A DNA stretch of 64,000 nt from Escherichia coli (lineage in GTDB: Bacteria > Pseudomonadota > Gammaproteobacteria > Enterobacterales > Enterobacteriaceae). This document shows positions 1-22,768 of the stretch, piece by piece. The stretch lies in the NCBI RefSeq assembly GCF_003790525.1, contig NZ_CP033635.1. One strand, 5' to 3'. The notes beneath the pieces were generated by a model. That model had not been told where the DNA came from and did no database searches. It worked only from the letters and a program-made list of their open reading frames with translations. Positions within the stretch are counted from its first letter, which is position 1, and each line of letters begins with the position of its first letter. The position numbers and the translations under genes are program-made.

Positions 1-814
1 CTGAGAAAGCGCCATGCGTAAATTTGCCTGTCTCGTAATCAAACTGTCCATGTAGCCAGGCGCAGGGATAGGTATTCAGATAGCGCTCATGTTCGCGCGC
101 CATTCCCTGGGGGCAGCAGAGGAGAATGTATTCACCATCAAGGGCGAAAAGATCAGGACATTCCCACATGTATCCTGCGTTATCAATTTCATTCAGACCA
201 TTACCAGCAATTTCTCCATGAAAAGACCAGGTATAGAGATCGACAGAGGAATACAGCAGCACTTTCCCCCGTTTCTCTTTATCTTGCGCGCCAAGCACCA
301 TGTACCATCGGCTGTTGTGCTTCCAGACTTTTGGATCACGAACATGTCCGGTGTAACCATCAGGTAACGGTATGACAGGGCCTAATTTATCAAACCCGCC
401 CTGGTTATTTTCGGTGGCCAGACATTGCCATGCCGTTCTGCTGCCATCATCAAACTTAACATTACCGGTATAGCAAAGTGTGAGAACGCCCTGATTATTA
501 ACCGCGCTTCCTGAGTAACAACCATTACGGTCATACTCTTTATCGGGCATTAGCGCTAATGGTTCATGCTGCCAGTGCAATAAATCCGTCGAACTCCAGT
601 GCCCCCAACATTTGTACTTATGATTACAATCCAATGGATTCCACTGATAAAACAGATGATAGCGGCCTCCTGACCAGCAAAAGCCATTTGGATCGTTCAT
701 TAGTCCGGTGACGGGAGCGAGATGCCAACAAGGATAGTGGGCATCTGCCTGTGCTTTGGACTGACCTTTCATCACTGCCTGTAAAATCGCGGGCATTTGT
801 GAAGGCATCGACAT
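1..814 (-). CDS. scrB: sucrose-6-phosphate hydrolase (GH32 invertase); N-terminal part only, gene runs off the window start
   Basis: Minus-strand frame open from 814 down to position 1; translation begins MSMPSQMPAILQAVMKGQSKAQADAHYPCWH; ATG overlaps the scrA stop (TAATG). Absent from the ORF track because no stop lies in the window. Confidence 0.75.
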   Translation of the reverse strand, partial: MSMPSQMPAILQAVMKGQSKAQADAHYPCWHLAPVTGLMNDPNGFCWSGGRYHLFYQWNPLDCNHKYKCWGHWSSTDLLHWQHEPLALMPDKEYDRNGCYSGSAVNNQGVLTLCYTGNVKFDDGSRTAWQCLATENNQGGFDKLGPVIPLPDGYTGHVRDPKVWKHNSRWYMVLGAQDKEKRGKVLLYSSVDLYTWSFHGEIAGNGLNEIDNAGYMWECPDLFALDGEYILLCCPQGMAREHERYLNTYPCAWLHGQFDYETGKFTHGAFS

Positions 815-2184
815 TACTCCTCGTCTGTTTTGTATTTGAGCAATAAAGAGAGACTAAAAGCGACAGCGAAAGCAATCACCATTCCAATAATATAATTAAC
901 CAACGATGTTGGCTGAACGATTGCCATGCCGGGTATTGCGGTCAGACCAACGGCAGTCATATAAACGTGAACAGAGACAACCCAGGCACCGCCGGCAGCG
1001 CCACCAATTAAGGCCGCAATAAAAGGTTTAACAAAACGAAGGTTGATACCAAAAATAGCGGCTTCAGTAATCCCTAACATTGCGGAAAAAGCCGAGGGTA
1101 GGGTGATTGCTTTAATTTTTGTATCTTTGGTTTTAAACCATACCGCCAGACATGCACCGCCTTGCGCAACGTTTGCCATTGCCCAAATAGGCAGCAGGAA
1201 ATTAACACCGATTGCAGGGTTACCTAAAAGTCCTGCTTCAATTGCGTGGAAGCTATGATGAATACCCGTAATAACAATCGCTGAATATAGCCCGCCGAAT
1301 AACAACCCCGCTAACCAGCCAGCGTGTGCAATCAGCGTGCTGAGAACGAAAGAGATACCATCACCTAACGCTCGCCCTGCCGGACCAATAATTAAAAGAG
1401 CGATAAAGCCAGAAATGACGACAGTCAGAAATGGCGTCAGAATGAGATCCAGAGCATCAGGGATAAACCTGCGTAACTGTTTTTCCACTATGCTCATAAA
1501 CCATACTGCCAGAAGCACGGGGAAAACCGTTCCCTGATAGCCAATCATGGCGATTTCAAAACCGAAGAAGTTCATTGTCTGAAATCCCGCAGCAACGCCC
1601 CAGGCATTTGTGAGTGCCGGGTGAGTCAGAATCCCTCCTAATGTCGCGCCAAGATAAGGATTTCCACCAAATTCACGAGCAGCAGTAAAGCCAATCAGGA
1701 TGGGGAGAATAATAAATGCGGCTGAACTGCACATATCCAGCAGGATATAAATCGCATTATCGGCATTCACCCAGCCATATGTTTTCACCATTCCCAGAAG
1801 CCCCATTAATAAACCAGAAGCAACAATGGCAGGAATGATGGGGACAAAAATATTAGAAAGCAGCCGTGCTATTCGCTGAAAAGGATTGAGTTTTTGAGCG
1901 GCGAGTCGAGCGGTATCTGCTTTACTGGATTCGCTAATACCCGCAACCTGAATAAAGGCAGCATAGACTTTATTAACCACGCCGGTGCCAAAGATGATCT
2001 GCATTTGCCCTGAATTACGAAAACAACCTTTCACTCCATCAATCTGGCCAATGGCATGTTGATCGGCAAGTGTGTCGTCAACCAGTACCAGCCGTAGGCG
2101 AGTGGCGCAATGTGCTGCACTGGCGATGTTCTCCTTACCACCTAATAAAGGAAGCAACGATTGGGCGATTTTATCGAAATCCAT
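814..2184 (-). CDS. scrA: PTS sucrose-specific EIIBC component
   Basis: 456 aa ORF; N-terminal EIIB-like motif (MDFDKIAQSLLPLLGGKENI...CATRLR) followed by a polytopic membrane domain. Confidence 0.85.
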   Translation of the reverse strand: MDFDKIAQSLLPLLGGKENIASAAHCATRLRLVLVDDTLADQHAIGQIDGVKGCFRNSGQMQIIFGTGVVNKVYAAFIQVAGISESSKADTARLAAQKLNPFQRIARLLSNIFVPIIPAIVASGLLMGLLGMVKTYGWVNADNAIYILLDMCSSAAFIILPILIGFTAAREFGGNPYLGATLGGILTHPALTNAWGVAAGFQTMNFFGFEIAMIGYQGTVFPVLLAVWFMSIVEKQLRRFIPDALDLILTPFLTVVISGFIALLIIGPAGRALGDGISFVLSTLIAHAGWLAGLLFGGLYSAIVITGIHHSFHAIEAGLLGNPAIGVNFLLPIWAMANVAQGGACLAVWFKTKDTKIKAITLPSAFSAMLGITEAAIFGINLRFVKPFIAALIGGAAGGAWVVSVHVYMTAVGLTAIPGMAIVQPTSLVNYIIGMVIAFAVAFSLSLLLKYKTDEE

Positions 2185-2244
2185 ATAACCCTCTAATTCA
2201 TTGTTATTTCAGTAAAAGCCTCACATTCGTGAGGCTGTCTGGTA

Positions 2245-3786
<1,542 letters not shown>

Positions 3787-3806
3787 TTATAAAAATTGCT
3801 AAAATG

Positions 3807-3820
3807 CTAAACCGGTTTAG
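3807..3820. promoter_or_regulatory. perfect 14-bp palindrome CTAAACCGGTTTAG, candidate ScrR (LacI-family) operator upstream of scrY
   Basis: Perfect inverted repeat read directly from the sequence in the scrK-scrY intergenic region. Confidence 0.5.
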
Positions 3821-3865
3821 GTGTTGATAATAAAGCTGACTTTTTAGCCAGAGCAATTATTTTCG

Positions 3866-3879
3866 CTAAACCGATTTAG
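3866..3879. promoter_or_regulatory. second operator-like near-palindrome CTAAACCGATTTAG
   Basis: One-mismatch copy of the 3807-3820 palindrome, 59 bp away in the same intergenic region. Confidence 0.45.
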
Positions 3880-3929
3880 TAAATGTGACAGGCACGACAA
3901 ATCGGGTTACAGATACAACAGCAGGATCA

Positions 3930-4850
3930 CTATTGTGAAGGGAGATCGTGTTGTCGGGGTAAGGCGGTTATCGCGCCTTTAGCCGTGGTCGCCAGAGCAC
4001 CACAAATCTGAGCTTGTGCAATGATTCGTTCAAGCTGTCTGGTATTTGTTGGTATTCCAGAATCAGCCAGACCTGCAAGTAATCCAGCGACAAAAGCATC
4101 TCCTGCCCCGGTCGTATCGACGACAGAAACAGGTTTGGCGGGATAGTGGATAAACTGCCCCTGAAAATACACAAGTACGCCATTTTTTCCTTGTGTAATA
4201 AGCAATAAAGTCAACGAATAACGTTGTACTAATGAATATGCGCCTTGCTGAACCTGGCTTTCGCCACTGATGAATAGCAACTCTTCTTCGGACAATTTAG
4301 CGATATTCGCCAGCGAAAGTGCGCGATCAAGGTATTTCCTTAATAGCGCTTCACTCTGCCAGAGATCGCTGCGGATATTGGGATCAAAACTGATGTTTCC
4401 GCCAGCCTGACGTATTTTCTCCATAGCCAGAAATGCGGTACTTCGGGAAGGTTCTGCACTGAGCGCAATGGAACAAAGATGGAGCCATTCACCCGGCCCA
4501 AATGCAGGAAGGTCACCAGGTTGTAAAAAAAGATCGGCACTTGGGCGTACCATAAAGGTAAAGTTTCTTTCTCCTTGCTCATCAAGTCCTACAGCCACAA
4601 TTGAGGTGCGTTGTTGAGGATCAAGAGACATATAATGTGTATCAACATTTTCTGTACTCAGTGTCTGATACATAAAGCGACCGAAAGGATCATCGCCAAC
4701 TTTGCCAATAAAGGCACTTTTCCCCCCCAGCCTTGCGATACCGACTGCAACATTAGCAGGCGCCCCGCCAGGACACTGTAGTAGTCTCCCCTGGCTTTCG
4801 GGTAATAAATCAACAACCGCATCACCGAGTACCCATACTCTTGCGCTCAT
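3930..4850 (-). CDS. scrK: fructokinase (PfkB/ribokinase family)
   Basis: 306 aa ORF with N-terminal GDAVVD and C-terminal DTTGAGDAF motifs. Confidence 0.85.
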   Translation of the reverse strand: MSARVWVLGDAVVDLLPESQGRLLQCPGGAPANVAVGIARLGGKSAFIGKVGDDPFGRFMYQTLSTENVDTHYMSLDPQQRTSIVAVGLDEQGERNFTFMVRPSADLFLQPGDLPAFGPGEWLHLCSIALSAEPSRSTAFLAMEKIRQAGGNISFDPNIRSDLWQSEALLRKYLDRALSLANIAKLSEEELLFISGESQVQQGAYSLVQRYSLTLLLITQGKNGVLVYFQGQFIHYPAKPVSVVDTTGAGDAFVAGLLAGLADSGIPTNTRQLERIIAQAQICGALATTAKGAITALPRQHDLPSQ

Positions 4851-4867
4851 AAAGGCTCCAATATACT

Positions 4868-4900
4868 AATTGCTAAACTAATTAAATCGGTTTAGCAATT
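4868..4900. promoter_or_regulatory. 33-bp inverted repeat AATTGCTAAAC-N11-GTTTAGCAATT containing a third operator-like copy (TTAAATCGGTTTAG), upstream of scrK
   Basis: Inverted repeat read from the sequence 18 bp upstream of the scrK start codon; shares the GCTAAAC/GTTTAGC half-sites with the two scrY-proximal palindromes. Confidence 0.4.
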
Positions 4901-5014
4901 AAAGCATAAACGCTGCTCAGGAGAGAACAATATTCAGCAGTGGTTACCCGGTATTTTGTGGTGGAAACGTGAATATGCCGGGATTAATCATCTACCCGGC
5001 ACTGTTTATCTCAC

Positions 5015-6493
5015 TTACGCATTCGACCAGCTCTGGATCGAATCTTCATTCCCCAGCTCACCATGCATCACTTCATACGATTTTTTCAGGATCACATCAG
5101 TGTGCTTGGTTAGGTCTTTGAAAATGCCTTTATTCATCGCGTCGTAGCGTTTGGCGTTGCTCTCAACAGGCATAAAGATATCTTTCACGCGAACCATTTT
5201 GTCGACAGCCGTTGCGTAATCCGGGTATAGCCCCAGACCTGCCGCCGTATTGATCGCAGCCCCCAGACTTGCACAACCATTAATGGCGTTTCGGCGTGCC
5301 GGAAGGTTGAACACGTCGGCAAAAATCTGCATAAACAGATCGCTGTTCGAACCGCCGCCAGTAATGATCACATGCTTTGCAAAGTGATTCATTTCATTAC
5401 ACATATTGTCGTAATTGTTCTTCAGCGTCAGCGCCACGCTTTCCAGTATCGAACGATATATCCATGCGTAATCCATGCTGGAATCAAAGCCGATCATAAT
5501 CCCGCGTTTGTATGGTTCCCACGGATTGGTCAGCCAGTCCAGCACCGTCATCAGACCATTACAGCCAGGCGGCACACAAGACGCTTTTTTGTTGAGCAAA
5601 TCTTCCGGTGAAAGATCCTGTGCTTTGGCATCCTGAATTAACGACTCGCCTAGCATGTCGCGTAGCCAGCTCACCGTCCACATGCCTTTGCGAATACCGT
5701 AACCTTCATACAGCAAGGTTTGCGGAATAGAAGACATAATCGGCCAGTACGCTACCGGATCTTTCGGCAGTGCTTTGCCGTTCATCATCAACGCGATGTA
5801 AGTGCCAAGAGAAATTACCGCCGTTTCATCATCCAGTAACCCTGCTCCCAGTGCTTCTACCGGTTTATCACTGGTGGTACAAACAACGGGCAGTCCAACC
5901 GGGAAATGTGTCGCCAGCGCGGCTTGTGGTGTGATATGCCCAAGAACAGTGCCCGGCATTTGCACATCAAAAAGCATCTGTCGGGGAATATTAAACTTCT
6001 CCATTACCGCGGTATCTTCGCTCCATGCCCAGGTCTTATAATCCACCGGCCACTGACCAAAATAGTTGGCGATATTGTCTTTAAACTCGCCGGTTAAACG
6101 GTGTGTCAGATAACCTGAAAAAGAGGTGACATATGCCACATCAGGATTGGTGTGCTCGTAGGGACGTGTAACGCGTGCATCCTGCCAGCTAATCAACGGC
6201 GCAGCTGGCGTGCCATCGGCTTTCAATAACGCACGGCAGCAACGGATGGATCCCAGACCAATACCGACAATATCTTCTTTATTTCCGGCAAACTGACTCA
6301 TCAAATCGTGACCGGCAAAACATAATGATGCCCATAAATCGTCGTCAGGATGTTCTGCGGTATCGGCATCTGGCGTGTGCATCGGCTGCAATAAGCCTTT
6401 GCCTTCGCAAACCACATTACCTTCCAGATCATACATCACCACTTTTGTGCTCTGACTTCCGCCATCAATCCCTATGATGTATTTTTTCGACAT
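5015..6493 (-). CDS. ygcE: FGGY-family sugar (pentulose/hexulose) kinase
   Basis: 492 aa ORF, N-terminal IGIDGGSQSTK actin-fold kinase motif. Confidence 0.85.
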   Translation of the reverse strand: MSKKYIIGIDGGSQSTKVVMYDLEGNVVCEGKGLLQPMHTPDADTAEHPDDDLWASLCFAGHDLMSQFAGNKEDIVGIGLGSIRCCRALLKADGTPAAPLISWQDARVTRPYEHTNPDVAYVTSFSGYLTHRLTGEFKDNIANYFGQWPVDYKTWAWSEDTAVMEKFNIPRQMLFDVQMPGTVLGHITPQAALATHFPVGLPVVCTTSDKPVEALGAGLLDDETAVISLGTYIALMMNGKALPKDPVAYWPIMSSIPQTLLYEGYGIRKGMWTVSWLRDMLGESLIQDAKAQDLSPEDLLNKKASCVPPGCNGLMTVLDWLTNPWEPYKRGIMIGFDSSMDYAWIYRSILESVALTLKNNYDNMCNEMNHFAKHVIITGGGSNSDLFMQIFADVFNLPARRNAINGCASLGAAINTAAGLGLYPDYATAVDKMVRVKDIFMPVESNAKRYDAMNKGIFKDLTKHTDVILKKSYEVMHGELGNEDSIQSWSNA

Positions 6494-6519
6494 GATTTTT
6501 CTCCTGTAATTTTCTGGAC

Positions 6520-7797
6520 TTACTTGCTGCTAGCCATAGCAGGGGCGCTATCAGCAGTACGAATTTTTTGGAACAGCAAAAAGGTAAAGATGATCACCAT
6601 GGCAAGCGCCGCCATGCCCATTAGCCACATGTTGCGGTAGGCTTCTGCAGCGGGCAGGGTGTCTTGCCAGTGGCCGATAATCGGGTAAACGAAGACATCC
6701 GGCAGGAATCCAATCACCGAACAAATACCTACCGTGGTGCCCATAATGTAAGACGGTGTTCTCGCTTCGCCGGGGCAGGCCCAGTACAGTCCACGTGAGG
6801 CGTAGCAGGTGAATCCCAGTAGTAAAATCAGGCCAATCCCCATAGCGACCGATTGCGGGTTAGAGTTGGTAACAAGCAGGGCAGTCAGTGCCAGCAGGCC
6901 GATGATGGAAAGGATTTGAATTACGCGGGTAGGGGATTTCACTTTACTGTAGGTGGTGATAATGCCGCCAAGTGGACCACACAGCGCGCGGAAGATTTTG
7001 TTGATCACAATCCCCATGTAGCTCGCCGCCACCAGCGACATGCCGTACATTTCGGTGAGATAGTTGGTGGAGTAACTCAGAATGGCGTAGATGGTGAAGA
7101 CGCCAAAAATCACCATGCTGCAATACCAGGTGGTGCTGATGCGCAAAACAGCCAGGATGTCGCTAAGCTGGAATGATTGTTTTTCTTCGTTATTGGCACT
7201 GCGCAGGTTGTTGTTATCGCTAACAAAAAACCAGCACAGAATCCCCAACAAGATGTAAACCACACTATAGATGATAATGACCGTTTTCAGGCTGGCGCTG
7301 TCATCCGGTGCAAAGCGAGAAAAGACCCACATGGTAAACACCGCCAGCGACATTACACCGACGCCGCGCAGCCCTTCCATCCAGCCCATAATTTTCCCTT
7401 GCTCGCTATGATCGCCCAGCAACGATGCGGCTTTAATCGACACCGACCACAGCATTAAAATCGTCGTTATCGCAAAGGCAACCTGAATACAGAGCATTAC
7501 CCACAGCGGTGGATAAGTTGCCATTAACAGACCCAGTAATCCGGTAATGATCATCGCGGAAGTAATCATTTTGCGATGTGAGAATTTATCGGCAATAACG
7601 CCACTGGGCGCATAAAGAATAATAGCTGCAATACCAAAGGTACTCATTATTAAACCTATCTCGGTATTGCTGAATCCCATAAATTTCGCCATGGGAATTT
7701 GATAAATATAACGTAAATAAGCCAGGTCGAAACTAACGCCGCCGCTAAAACTAATTATCGCGAGGGTTATCCAACGGCGATATGAGTTGTGTTGCAT
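6520..7797 (-). CDS. yqcE: MFS transporter
   Basis: 425 aa ORF, 12-TM-like hydrophobic profile; 27 bp upstream of ygcE on the same strand. Confidence 0.8.
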   Translation of the reverse strand: MQHNSYRRWITLAIISFSGGVSFDLAYLRYIYQIPMAKFMGFSNTEIGLIMSTFGIAAIILYAPSGVIADKFSHRKMITSAMIITGLLGLLMATYPPLWVMLCIQVAFAITTILMLWSVSIKAASLLGDHSEQGKIMGWMEGLRGVGVMSLAVFTMWVFSRFAPDDSASLKTVIIIYSVVYILLGILCWFFVSDNNNLRSANNEEKQSFQLSDILAVLRISTTWYCSMVIFGVFTIYAILSYSTNYLTEMYGMSLVAASYMGIVINKIFRALCGPLGGIITTYSKVKSPTRVIQILSIIGLLALTALLVTNSNPQSVAMGIGLILLLGFTCYASRGLYWACPGEARTPSYIMGTTVGICSVIGFLPDVFVYPIIGHWQDTLPAAEAYRNMWLMGMAALAMVIIFTFLLFQKIRTADSAPAMASSK

Positions 7798-7821
7798 ATC
7801 GTATTCCCATTTGTAATAGAC

Positions 7822-7869
7822 AAAAAAAAGAGAAAAGTAAGCCGCCCTTTCAGGTGGATTACTTTTCTC
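7822..7869 (-). terminator. leader hairpin plus U8 tract 24 nt upstream of the yqcE start (candidate attenuator/terminator)
   Basis: 11-bp stem GAGAAAAGTAA / TTACTTTTCTC (7830-7840 / 7859-7869) followed on the minus strand by eight U (7822-7829). Confidence 0.5.
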
Positions 7870-7972
7870 AGGTCTCTAGTAATTGCAATAAGAAATAACA
7901 TGGAAAGCAGTGGTGTTGTGTGAGAGTAGTCACGCTTCTGCTTTTTAAAATTATTTGACAATACGAATATCA

Positions 7973-7994
7973 CACTGTGATTACGATCACATTA
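7973..7994. promoter_or_regulatory. CRP-type binding site (TGTGA-N6-TCACA) in the divergent yqcE/ygcW control region
   Basis: TGTGA at 7976-7980, 6-bp spacer, TCACA at 7987-7991: a perfect CRP core consensus. Confidence 0.55.
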
Positions 7995-8043
7995 GCGCTT
8001 ATGCCCTTATGCTAAAAATTATCTCCAGTTACCAGAGATAATG

Positions 8044-21246: not shown

Positions 21247-22585
21247 CATAAGCGCTAACTTAAGGGTTGTGGTATTACGCCTGATATGATTTAACGTGCC
21301 GATGAATTACTCTCACGATAACTGGTCAGCAATTCTGGCCCATATTGGTAAGCCCGAAGAACTGGATACTTCGGCACGTAATGCCGGGGCTCTAACCCGC
21401 CGCCGCGAAATTCGTGATGCTGCAACTCTGCTACGTCTGGGGCTGGCTTACGGCCCCGGGGGGATGTCATTACGTGAAGTCACTGCATGGGCTCAGCTCC
21501 ATGACGTTGCAACATTATCTGACGTGGCTCTCCTGAAGCGGCTGCGGAATGCCGCCGACTGGTTTGGCATACTTGCCGCACAAACACTTGCTGTACGCGC
21601 CGCAGTTACGGGTTGTACAAGCGGAAAGAGATTGCGTCTTGTCGATGGAACAGCAATCAGTGCGCCCGGGGGCGGCAGCGCTGAATGGCGACTACATATG
21701 GGATATGATCCTCATACCTGTCAGTTCACTGATTTTGAGCTAACCGACAGCAGAGACGCTGAACGGCTGGACCGATTTGCGCAAACGGCAGACGAGATAC
21801 GCATTGCTGACCGGGGATTCGGTTCGCGTCCCGAATGTATCCGCTCACTTGCTTTTGGAGAAGCTGATTATATCGTCCGGGTTCACTGGCGAGGATTGCG
21901 CTGGTTAACTGCAGAAGGAATGCGCTTTGACATGATGGGTTTTCTGCGCGGGCTGGATTGCGGTAAGAACGGTGAAACCACTGTAATGATAGGCAATTCA
22001 GGTAATAAAAAAGCCGGAGCTCCCTTTCCGGCACGTCTCATTGCCGTATCACTTCCTCCCGAAAAAGCATTAATCAGTAAAACCCGACTGCTCAGCGAGA
22101 ATCGTCGAAAAGGACGAGTAGTTCAGGCGGAAACGCTGGAAGCAGCGGGCCATGTGCTATTGCTAACATCATTACCGGAAGATGAATATTCAGCAGAGCA
22201 AGTGGCTGATTGTTACCGTCTGCGATGGCAAATTGAACTGGCTTTTAAGCGGCTCAAAAGTTTGCTGCACCTGGATGCTTTGCGTGCAAAGGAACCTGAA
22301 CTCGCGAAAGCGTGGATATTTGCTAATCTACTCGCCGCATTTTTAATTGACGACATAATCCAGCCATCGCTGGATTTCCCCCCCAGAAGTGCCGGATCCG
22401 AAAAGAAGAACTAACTCGTTGTGGAGAATAACAAAAATGGTCATCTGGAGCTTACAGGTGGCCATTCGTGGGACAGTATCCCTGACAGCCTACAAAACGC
22501 AATTGAAGAACGCGAGGCATCGTCTTAACGAGGCACCGAGGCGTCGCATTCTTCAGATGGTTCAACCCTTAAGTTAGCGCTTATG
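21247..22585 (+). mobile_element. IS186 insertion sequence (about 1339 bp)
   Basis: 23-bp terminal inverted repeats CATAAGCGCTAACTTAAGGGTTG (21247-21269) and its reverse complement (22563-22585); encodes IS186-type transposase; flanked by a duplicated GGGTAAAACC-type target. Confidence 0.9.
21302..22414 (+). CDS. insL: IS186 transposase (IS4 family)
   Basis: 370 aa from ATG 21302 (MNYSHDNWSAILAHIGKPEEL...); the ORF track starts two codons earlier at a GTG. Confidence 0.9.
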   Translation: MNYSHDNWSAILAHIGKPEELDTSARNAGALTRRREIRDAATLLRLGLAYGPGGMSLREVTAWAQLHDVATLSDVALLKRLRNAADWFGILAAQTLAVRAAVTGCTSGKRLRLVDGTAISAPGGGSAEWRLHMGYDPHTCQFTDFELTDSRDAERLDRFAQTADEIRIADRGFGSRPECIRSLAFGEADYIVRVHWRGLRWLTAEGMRFDMMGFLRGLDCGKNGETTVMIGNSGNKKAGAPFPARLIAVSLPPEKALISKTRLLSENRRKGRVVQAETLEAAGHVLLLTSLPEDEYSAEQVADCYRLRWQIELAFKRLKSLLHLDALRAKEPELAKAWIFANLLAAFLIDDIIQPSLDFPPRSAGSEKKN

Positions 22586-22768
22586 GGGTAAAACCCCGCG
22601 TACTGAATTGTGATGGTTTGGTCTCCTGCACCCTTTTTTAATTTATATTGTTTATGTGAATATTATGCCTATGTTTATTATTCATATATATTACGGATGA
22701 AAATTATTTGATTATTCATAATGTAAATATTTTATTGAACGATATATATCACAGATAATTTTTAATAT

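Follow-up and report, generated by a model that had tools for sequence, protein, structure and literature searches.

The window analysed here is a stretch of 64,000 nucleotides of Escherichia coli DNA (contig NZ_CP033635.1), and its bases 1-21,247 match the E. coli SMS-3-5 chromosome NC_010498.1, in reverse complement, without a difference. The scr genes lie at its beginning and are read from the minus strand. The features of the locus, including the elements of the scrY-scrA gap, are given below in window coordinates.

1..814, minus strand: scrB, sucrose-6-phosphate hydrolase, truncated by the window start
814..2184, minus strand: scrA, sucrose PTS EIIBC, 456 aa, with its ATG at 2184-2182; RefSeq agrees
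2189..2194, minus strand: scrA Shine-Dalgarno sequence AGAGGG; orthologues keep (C)AGAGG(T/G) ahead of the scrA ATG
2195..2213, minus strand: A/U-rich linker ACUGAAAUAACAAUGAAUU, predicted to be unstructured
2214..2217, minus strand: U run UUUU, including the closing U of the stem, then ACUG
2217..2236, minus strand: RNA hairpin with 5' arm AGCCUCAC (2236-2229), loop GAAU (2228-2225) and 3' arm GUGAGGCU (2224-2217)
2247-2245, minus strand: scrY stop codon UAA, 8 nt upstream of the hairpin
2245..3762, minus strand: scrY, sucrose porin of 505 aa, a LamB-family carbohydrate porin; RefSeq agrees
3883-3856, minus strand: promoter-like site of scrY
3807-3820 and 3866-3879, minus strand: 14-bp palindromes CTAAACCGGTTTAG and CTAAATCGGTTTAG, respectively, flanking the promoter-like site
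3930-4850, minus strand: scrK, the upstream ORF, fructokinase; RefSeq agrees

The 456-aa ORF assigned to scrA matched sucrose PTS IIBC (TIGR01996) with 649.6 bits, the cutoff being 559.3. In SMS-3-5, the scrKYABR block is located between ygcE and queE, and scrK and scrYABR have been stated to be the transcription units (PMC11251922). The two palindromes around the scrY promoter-like site fit the ScrR operators published for pUR400 (PMC11251922). Regarding a possible internal promoter for scrA, we found no promoter-like site on the minus strand in the gap or in the 3' end of scrY. Since the start codon of scrB overlaps the stop codon of scrA, an overlap of the TAATG type that is found in most orthologues, the scrY-scrA gap is the only sizeable one from scrY to scrB.

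Two further observations concern the surroundings of the locus. At the left edge of the scr insertion, the ygcE-scrK gap contains a hairpin, GTGCCGGG...CCCGGCAT (window ~4975-5002, -13.6 kcal/mol, 12-nt loop), located 13 nt past the ygcE stop and devoid of a U tract, which may be a 3' structure of ygcE or a junction feature of the scr island. Besides, a 1349-bp insertion at window positions 21248-22596 is missing from the RefSeq record of SMS-3-5, so the window is not byte-identical to NC_010498.1. It encodes a 372-aa IS4-family transposase (21296-22414; NF033592, 133 bits) and lies inside ACGCGGGGGTAAAACCCCGCGT, a GC-rich hairpin of the hok-cas3 gap on the downstream side of hok. From its start, CATAAGCGCTAACTTAAGGG, this insertion looks IS186-like.

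The scrY-scrA hairpin and its variation in E. coli

The gap between scrY and scrA measures 60 nt (2185-2244). The initial annotation had placed in it a perfect 8-bp inverted repeat with a 4-nt loop (2217-2236), followed by a short U tract on the mRNA strand, and each of these points was borne out by the sequence. The arms AGCCTCAC (2217-2224) and GTGAGGCT (2229-2236) are 100% complementary, the position between the scrY stop (2245-2247) and the scrA ATG (2184-2182) is exact, and the stem is followed on the mRNA strand by UUUACUGA, which makes UUUU when the closing U is counted. The hairpin is present in both the MFE and the centroid structures, and five of its eight pairs are G-C. With the hairpin in parentheses, the gap reads as mRNA UAA-UACCAGAC-(AGCCUCAC-GAAU-GUGAGGCU)-UUUACUGAAAUAACAAUGAAUU-AGAGGG-UUAU-AUG. 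The linker downstream of the stem contains GA|AUU, which fits the RNase E motif RN|WUU as described in PMC5927463 and gives a weak hint of an RNase E site at this point.

We then compared the hairpin with chance expectation. The 28-nt hairpin has an energy of -13.6 kcal/mol (z = -4.65), with 0 of 200 shuffles as good. Likewise, the best hairpin in the 60-nt gap reaches -13.0 kcal/mol, while 200 dinucleotide shuffles average -2.5 and none of them equals it. Perfect 8-bp inverted repeats with loops of 3-8 nt are rare, with only 11 registers (8 sites) in the 64-kb window. Of the 19 same-strand gaps in the vicinity that measure 25 nt or more, nine contain a hairpin of -11 kcal/mol or better and five one of -13 kcal/mol or better. 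As around half of the same-strand gaps have similar hairpins, the one of E. coli is unremarkable when taken alone and is no proof of function; the single E. coli sequence stands only weakly above chance.

Of 5,426 complete E. coli genomes, 987 have the scr locus, and we compared its alleles (loci L086-L090 and L028) with window positions 2217-2236. The 20-nt hairpin is a local polymorphism hot spot, as it holds five of the seven columns that vary in the 106-nt stretch around the gap. In about 840 records the stem is intact and the loop is GAAU or GGAU, the loop positions varying freely, while about 38 plasmid copies combine an intact stem with changes in the linker and the Shine-Dalgarno sequence. 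In about 50 records, one pair has changed from G-C to G-U and the U run is lengthened to five (the TUM1880 allele). Finally, around 62 of 988 records (6%) carry A-U at that same pair, but have a C.A mismatch elsewhere in the stem. In this mismatch allele the stem is at -4 kcal/mol, the gap folds no better than its shuffles (z = -0.1), and the minimum-energy fold pairs the freed CCUC with the scrA Shine-Dalgarno sequence. Counting in the allele with one G-U, all eight pairs are kept in 94% of the E. coli records. Judged from these sequences, the series of G-C, G-U and A-U across alleles is a classical compensatory path. The existence of the mismatch allele means that the hairpin is at least dispensable in some lineages.

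A hairpin conserved in position and structure across Enterobacterales

To follow the gap beyond E. coli, ScrY sequences of five taxa were aligned over their last 215 residues, and one genome per species was then scanned. Together with plasmid matches, the scan gave 84 loci with scrA directly after scrY, from about 80 species of Enterobacterales, and these loci contain 79 distinct scrY-scrA gaps of 57 to 193 nt. Nearly all of the 79 gaps have a GC-rich hairpin, starting at a median of 6 nt past the scrY stop. The median energy of the best hairpin is -18.1 kcal/mol, and the E. coli stem (-13.0 kcal/mol) is among the weakest. In 87% of the gaps, no more than 5 of 200 dinucleotide-shuffled versions matched the native sequence in stability. 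Our hairpin finder works by stem extension and is blind to bulged and large-loop hairpins; in three of the ten exceptions (L004, L061 and L036), RNAfold shows hairpins of precisely these kinds, so these three are artefacts of the finder.

The stem sequences are unrelated between genera and fall into roughly 12-15 types, while the (C)AGAGG(U/G) part near the Shine-Dalgarno sequence can still be aligned. Examples of the stems are AGCCUCAC in E. coli, ACGCUCCCGC in Enterobacter/Lelliottia, GGCCCCGG or CGGCCCC in Pantoea/Kosakonia, CCGGGGCGAC in Klebsiella/Raoultella, CCCUGGCGGAGG in Serratia, GGGCCUUCGGG in Mangrovibacter and CGCCGGUCGUCG in Brenneria. Within two groups we could follow the individual pairs. 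In the Enterobacter/Lelliottia group, 95.2% of the cells are paired and double changes are found in 4 of 10 pairs; in the Pantoea/Kosakonia group, the values are 96.4% and 5 of 7 pairs. The covariation score was above 500 of 500 shuffles and above all slid-partner controls in both groups, although these controls overstate independence because the sampled species are related. A full turnover of the sequence with retention of a hairpin at one position is still hard to explain without selection on the structure.

Regarding the rest of the gap, the orthologous linkers are 38% A, and ATAA[AC] occurs in 63 of the 79 gaps. The AAU-AAC-AAU of E. coli is (ARN)3-like. From its sequence, it is conceivable that this A-rich linker is a site for Hfq and sRNAs, of the (ARN)n or SgrS type, or a translation enhancer.

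The gaps of Klebsiella, Raoultella and pUR400-like loci form a type of their own. They measure 126-138 nt in L004, L022, L025, L033, L036-L041, L047, L050 and L061 (alignment A4) and contain three successive hairpins plus a predicted long-range helix, in which CGCCUGA, located ~7-14 nt past the scrY stop, pairs with UUCAGAGGG, comprising the scrA Shine-Dalgarno sequence. The pUR400-like version is deduced from the loci with a 135-nt gap, L004 and L061. Like the gap of E. coli, that of pUR400, Klebsiella and Raoultella occupies the orthologous position and has a strong hairpin, CCGGGGCG...CGCCCCGG, after scrY; unlike the 60-nt gap of the SMS-3-5 type, it is 135-138 nt long, and the two have no sequence similarity. 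The predicted long-range helix could serve as a translational-coupling device in these species; it has no covariation support because it is almost invariant in sequence.

We also came across two ScrY-like porin genes with no scrA after them, in an uncultured Cedecea (L031) and in Klebsiella sp. BIGb0407 (L043). Both still have a strong GC hairpin after the stop codon (GGCCCCC...GGGGGCC, and GCCCCC...GGGGGC in L043), with a U tract that is absent or weak.

U tract and terminator character

The stem of E. coli has the dimensions of a canonical terminator stem (at least 5 bp, GC-rich, with a loop of 3-8 nt), as it has 8 bp, a 4-nt loop and an energy of -13 kcal/mol. However, a consensus terminator scan, with a threshold of at least 5 T in 8 nt, did not call the hairpin, since the 8 nt that follow the stem (UUUACUGA) include just 4 T. 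Using the scores of d'Aubenton-Carafa, the E. coli tail has a T-score of 3.33, a value reached by 1.6% of random window positions. The corresponding discriminant is borderline, at about +5 in one register only and with one closing pair peeled, and is a rough value because modern energies were fed into the 1990 formula.

In the same region, the sole call of the consensus scan was a weak plus-strand site at 2237-2256, overlapping the scrY stop. It coincides with a small hairpin on the mRNA strand, CUGGU...ACCAG, which has the scrY stop codon in its loop and is probably incidental, since one of its arms codes for a conserved T-W-F.

When the 8 nt past the stem were inspected in the 79 gaps, we found no T in 6 of them, one in 26, two in 23, three in 18, four in 5 and five in 1. 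At least four T are thus present in 6 of the 79 gaps and at least five in only one, while 55 have two or fewer. The median T-score of the orthologues is 1.27 versus 0.93 for random positions, and 29% of the orthologous tails are above the random 90th percentile, where 10% are expected. Typical tails are AGAGATCA, ACACAATA and GCACTGAC, and also AGAGAUCA, ACACAAUA and GCACUGAC. The allele of E. coli is the opposite outlier, since its stem is among the weakest and its tail among the richest in U. Given that the U tract is not retained in the orthologues, it is the hairpin, and not a canonical terminator, that is selected across the family.

A canonical intrinsic terminator is present at the end of the operon, 3' of scrR (L001 10245-10282, just outside the window). 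It consists of ATCGCCCC-TGTAAAAC-GGGGCGAT followed by TGTTTTTC, also written AUCGCCCC-UGUAAAAC-GGGGCGAU and then UGUUUUUC, and has the convergent queE on its other side. With a textbook terminator after scrR, the scrY-scrA hairpin is of a different grade.

The initial annotation had offered a partial terminator or an mRNA-stability element as the role of the hairpin, which might in this way set the ratio of porin to transporter. That a selected RNA hairpin lies here is upheld by the 79 gaps and by the covariation. The terminator half of the proposal is plausible for the E. coli allele, given its T-score, and does not extend to the family, where the U tract is not conserved; nor did the consensus scan make a call in E. 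coli. Because of this lack of conservation, the stability element fits better than the terminator.

One can still argue that the hairpin is primarily a leaky Rho-independent terminator, with release at the U run, so that scrA, scrB and scrR would be transcribed less than scrY and the stabilisation of the terminated RNA would be only secondary. Leaky internal intrinsic terminators are known, such as T1 of rpsU-dnaG-rpoD and the hairpin between fecA and fecB. They share with the scr gap a GC-rich stem and a short U run between cistrons of one unit, together with the expected step down in downstream expression, and differ in that the U run of scr is 4 nt in E. coli and absent in most orthologues. 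The E. coli stem of 7-8 bp with its UUUU, the rough discriminant, the five U of the TUM1880 allele and the excess of orthologous tails above the 90th percentile all speak for such a terminator. Against this, tails like AGAGATCA, ACACAATA and GCACTGAC cannot support intrinsic termination, most gaps have at most two T, the scan gave no call with 4/8 T, and the terminator at the end of scrR is far more canonical. We therefore regard termination as the primary role as unlikely, while the E. coli allele in particular, with its weak stem and four to five U, is probably also a leaky terminator, as far as its sequence tells.

Possible functions in the scr operon

Our preferred reading, to which we assign a probability of roughly 0.45 and which remains tentative, is that of a protective 3' hairpin that would define and stabilise a scrY-only mRNA end, as a family-wide function. 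Hairpins of this class have been documented for malE-malF, are found in about 12% of the E. coli operons and are conserved in Salmonella and Enterobacter (PMC5927463). In them, an endonuclease cuts the transcript downstream, and PNPase and RNase II can then attack the distal cistrons, but they stall at the hairpin, so that the upstream cistron stays stable (PMC5927463). In the scr operon, a stable hairpin likewise stands at the 3' boundary of the upstream cistron within one transcription unit, and its structure is conserved in related species (87% of the 79 gaps, with covariation in two groups).

By analogy, we infer as follows which nucleases act, where the transcripts end and how the ScrY:ScrA ratio changes. 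Within the polycistronic scrYAB(R) mRNA, the conserved hairpin would mark and protect the 3' end of the scrY segment. RNase E would presumably cut the transcript downstream, either within the A/U-rich linker or in scrA and scrB, which would be translated less densely. Exonucleases acting 3' to 5' would then degrade back and stall at the hairpin, and the scrY message would outlive that of scrA and scrB, yielding more porin than transporter or hydrolase from a single promoter. The E. coli hairpin would probably stop a small share of the RNA polymerases as well, in the manner of a leaky intrinsic terminator and with the same effect. Under either the decay barrier or the leaky terminator, scrY mRNA should exceed scrA mRNA and a 3' end should fall at ~2210-2216, and conservation of the hairpin does not separate a decay barrier from other roles that depend on a hairpin.

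The likeness to the class of malE-malF (Dar & Sorek 2018, PMC5927463), which for scr is drawn from sequence, comprises a stable hairpin directly after a promoter-proximal gene for an envelope component, an upstream product needed in higher amount than the downstream membrane transporter, conservation of the structure in related enterobacteria, and a U tract that is not required. Unlike the REP hairpins of malE-malF, the scr hairpin is single-copy and is not a REP element. The strain used in the study of PMC5927463 was K-12, which has no scr. A second parallel is the 'mRNA decay terminator' of the Rhodobacter capsulatus puf operon (pufBALMX, cited in PMC5927463), also an intercistronic stem-loop, which ends 3'-to-5' decay and sets the stoichiometry of the operon products; the scr hairpin would resemble it on sequence grounds. 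The puf structure belongs to another organism and operon, is larger and has been proven experimentally, whereas that of scr is known from sequence. A full-text literature search, which did not cover the 1991 pUR400 papers, returned no description of a hairpin in the scrY-scrA gap.

The hairpin could also be without a function in present-day E. coli, either as the decaying remnant of a terminator or hairpin that came along with the scrY module or as a palindrome that arose by chance. The E. coli stem does belong to the weakest class among the orthologues, comparable hairpins are found in many gaps, most of the variable columns fall in the hairpin, and the mismatch allele makes up ~6% of the records. 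We nevertheless hold this to be quite unlikely, since 94% of the records keep the eight pairs, the alleles form the compensatory series described above, and the hairpin has been kept at its position across ~80 species with significant covariation.

A role in the translation of scrA seems less likely still. With CCUC in its 5' arm and GAGG in its 3' arm, the hairpin might hold CCUC away from the scrA Shine-Dalgarno sequence, or it might insulate scrA from the ribosomes that terminate on scrY or couple it to them. The fold of the mismatch allele, which pairs CCUC with the Shine-Dalgarno sequence, points in this direction, as does the predicted helix of the 135-nt gaps of the Klebsiella/pUR400 type, between bases after the scrY stop and TTCAGAGGG, which includes the scrA Shine-Dalgarno sequence. 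However, the pairing of CCUC with the Shine-Dalgarno sequence extends to only 4 bp, in a fold no better than shuffles, many orthologous stems have neither Shine-Dalgarno nor anti-Shine-Dalgarno content, and the nearly invariant long-range helix, with no covariation, is absent from the gap of the E. coli type.

A related and very doubtful idea is a ribosome-sensing device, in which formation of the hairpin would track the translation of scrY against its transcription and couple scrA and scrB to the translation of the porin. As the hairpin starts 8 nt past the stop codon, a ribosome that finishes scrY would sit on the 5' arm or melt it. Whether the hairpin forms, and with it the termination or block of decay and the exposure of the anti-Shine-Dalgarno-like CCUC arm, would then depend on how tightly translation of scrY keeps up with transcription. 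In the same speculative vein, porin-first sugar operons of Enterobacterales might use a hairpin right behind the stop codon as a general means of setting stoichiometry.

The least likely reading, extremely improbable despite a perfect DNA palindrome with a 4-bp centre, is a DNA-level or repeat element, that is, a site for ScrR or another protein or a REP/BIME-type sequence, as the arms AGCCTCAC/GTGAGGCT are unrelated to the CTAAACCGGTTTAG-type ScrR operators, the palindrome differs between genera although ScrR is conserved, the hairpin occurs at a median of one place per genome in the 987 genomes (extra places being found only at extra scr loci), no second copy with up to 3 mismatches was found in the 64-kb window, and an Rfam 15 search of positions 1-8000 at E<=1 returned only an unrelated sub-threshold snoRNA match at 5738-5792.

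Returning to the protective hairpin, its confirmation would mean that a single ScrR-controlled promoter gives more outer-membrane porin than inner-membrane EIIBC and hydrolase. The scrY-scrA hairpin would add a new example to a known class of operon fine-tuning, which would not surprise a specialist and changes no general concept; it would be a cleanly conserved, intergenic, non-REP member of the protective-hairpin class. The natural alleles of E. coli (intact, G-U and mismatched) constitute a ready-made allelic series. If the reading is true, it would be relevant when scr cassettes are moved into production strains, with regard to the ScrY:ScrA balance and to envelope stress.
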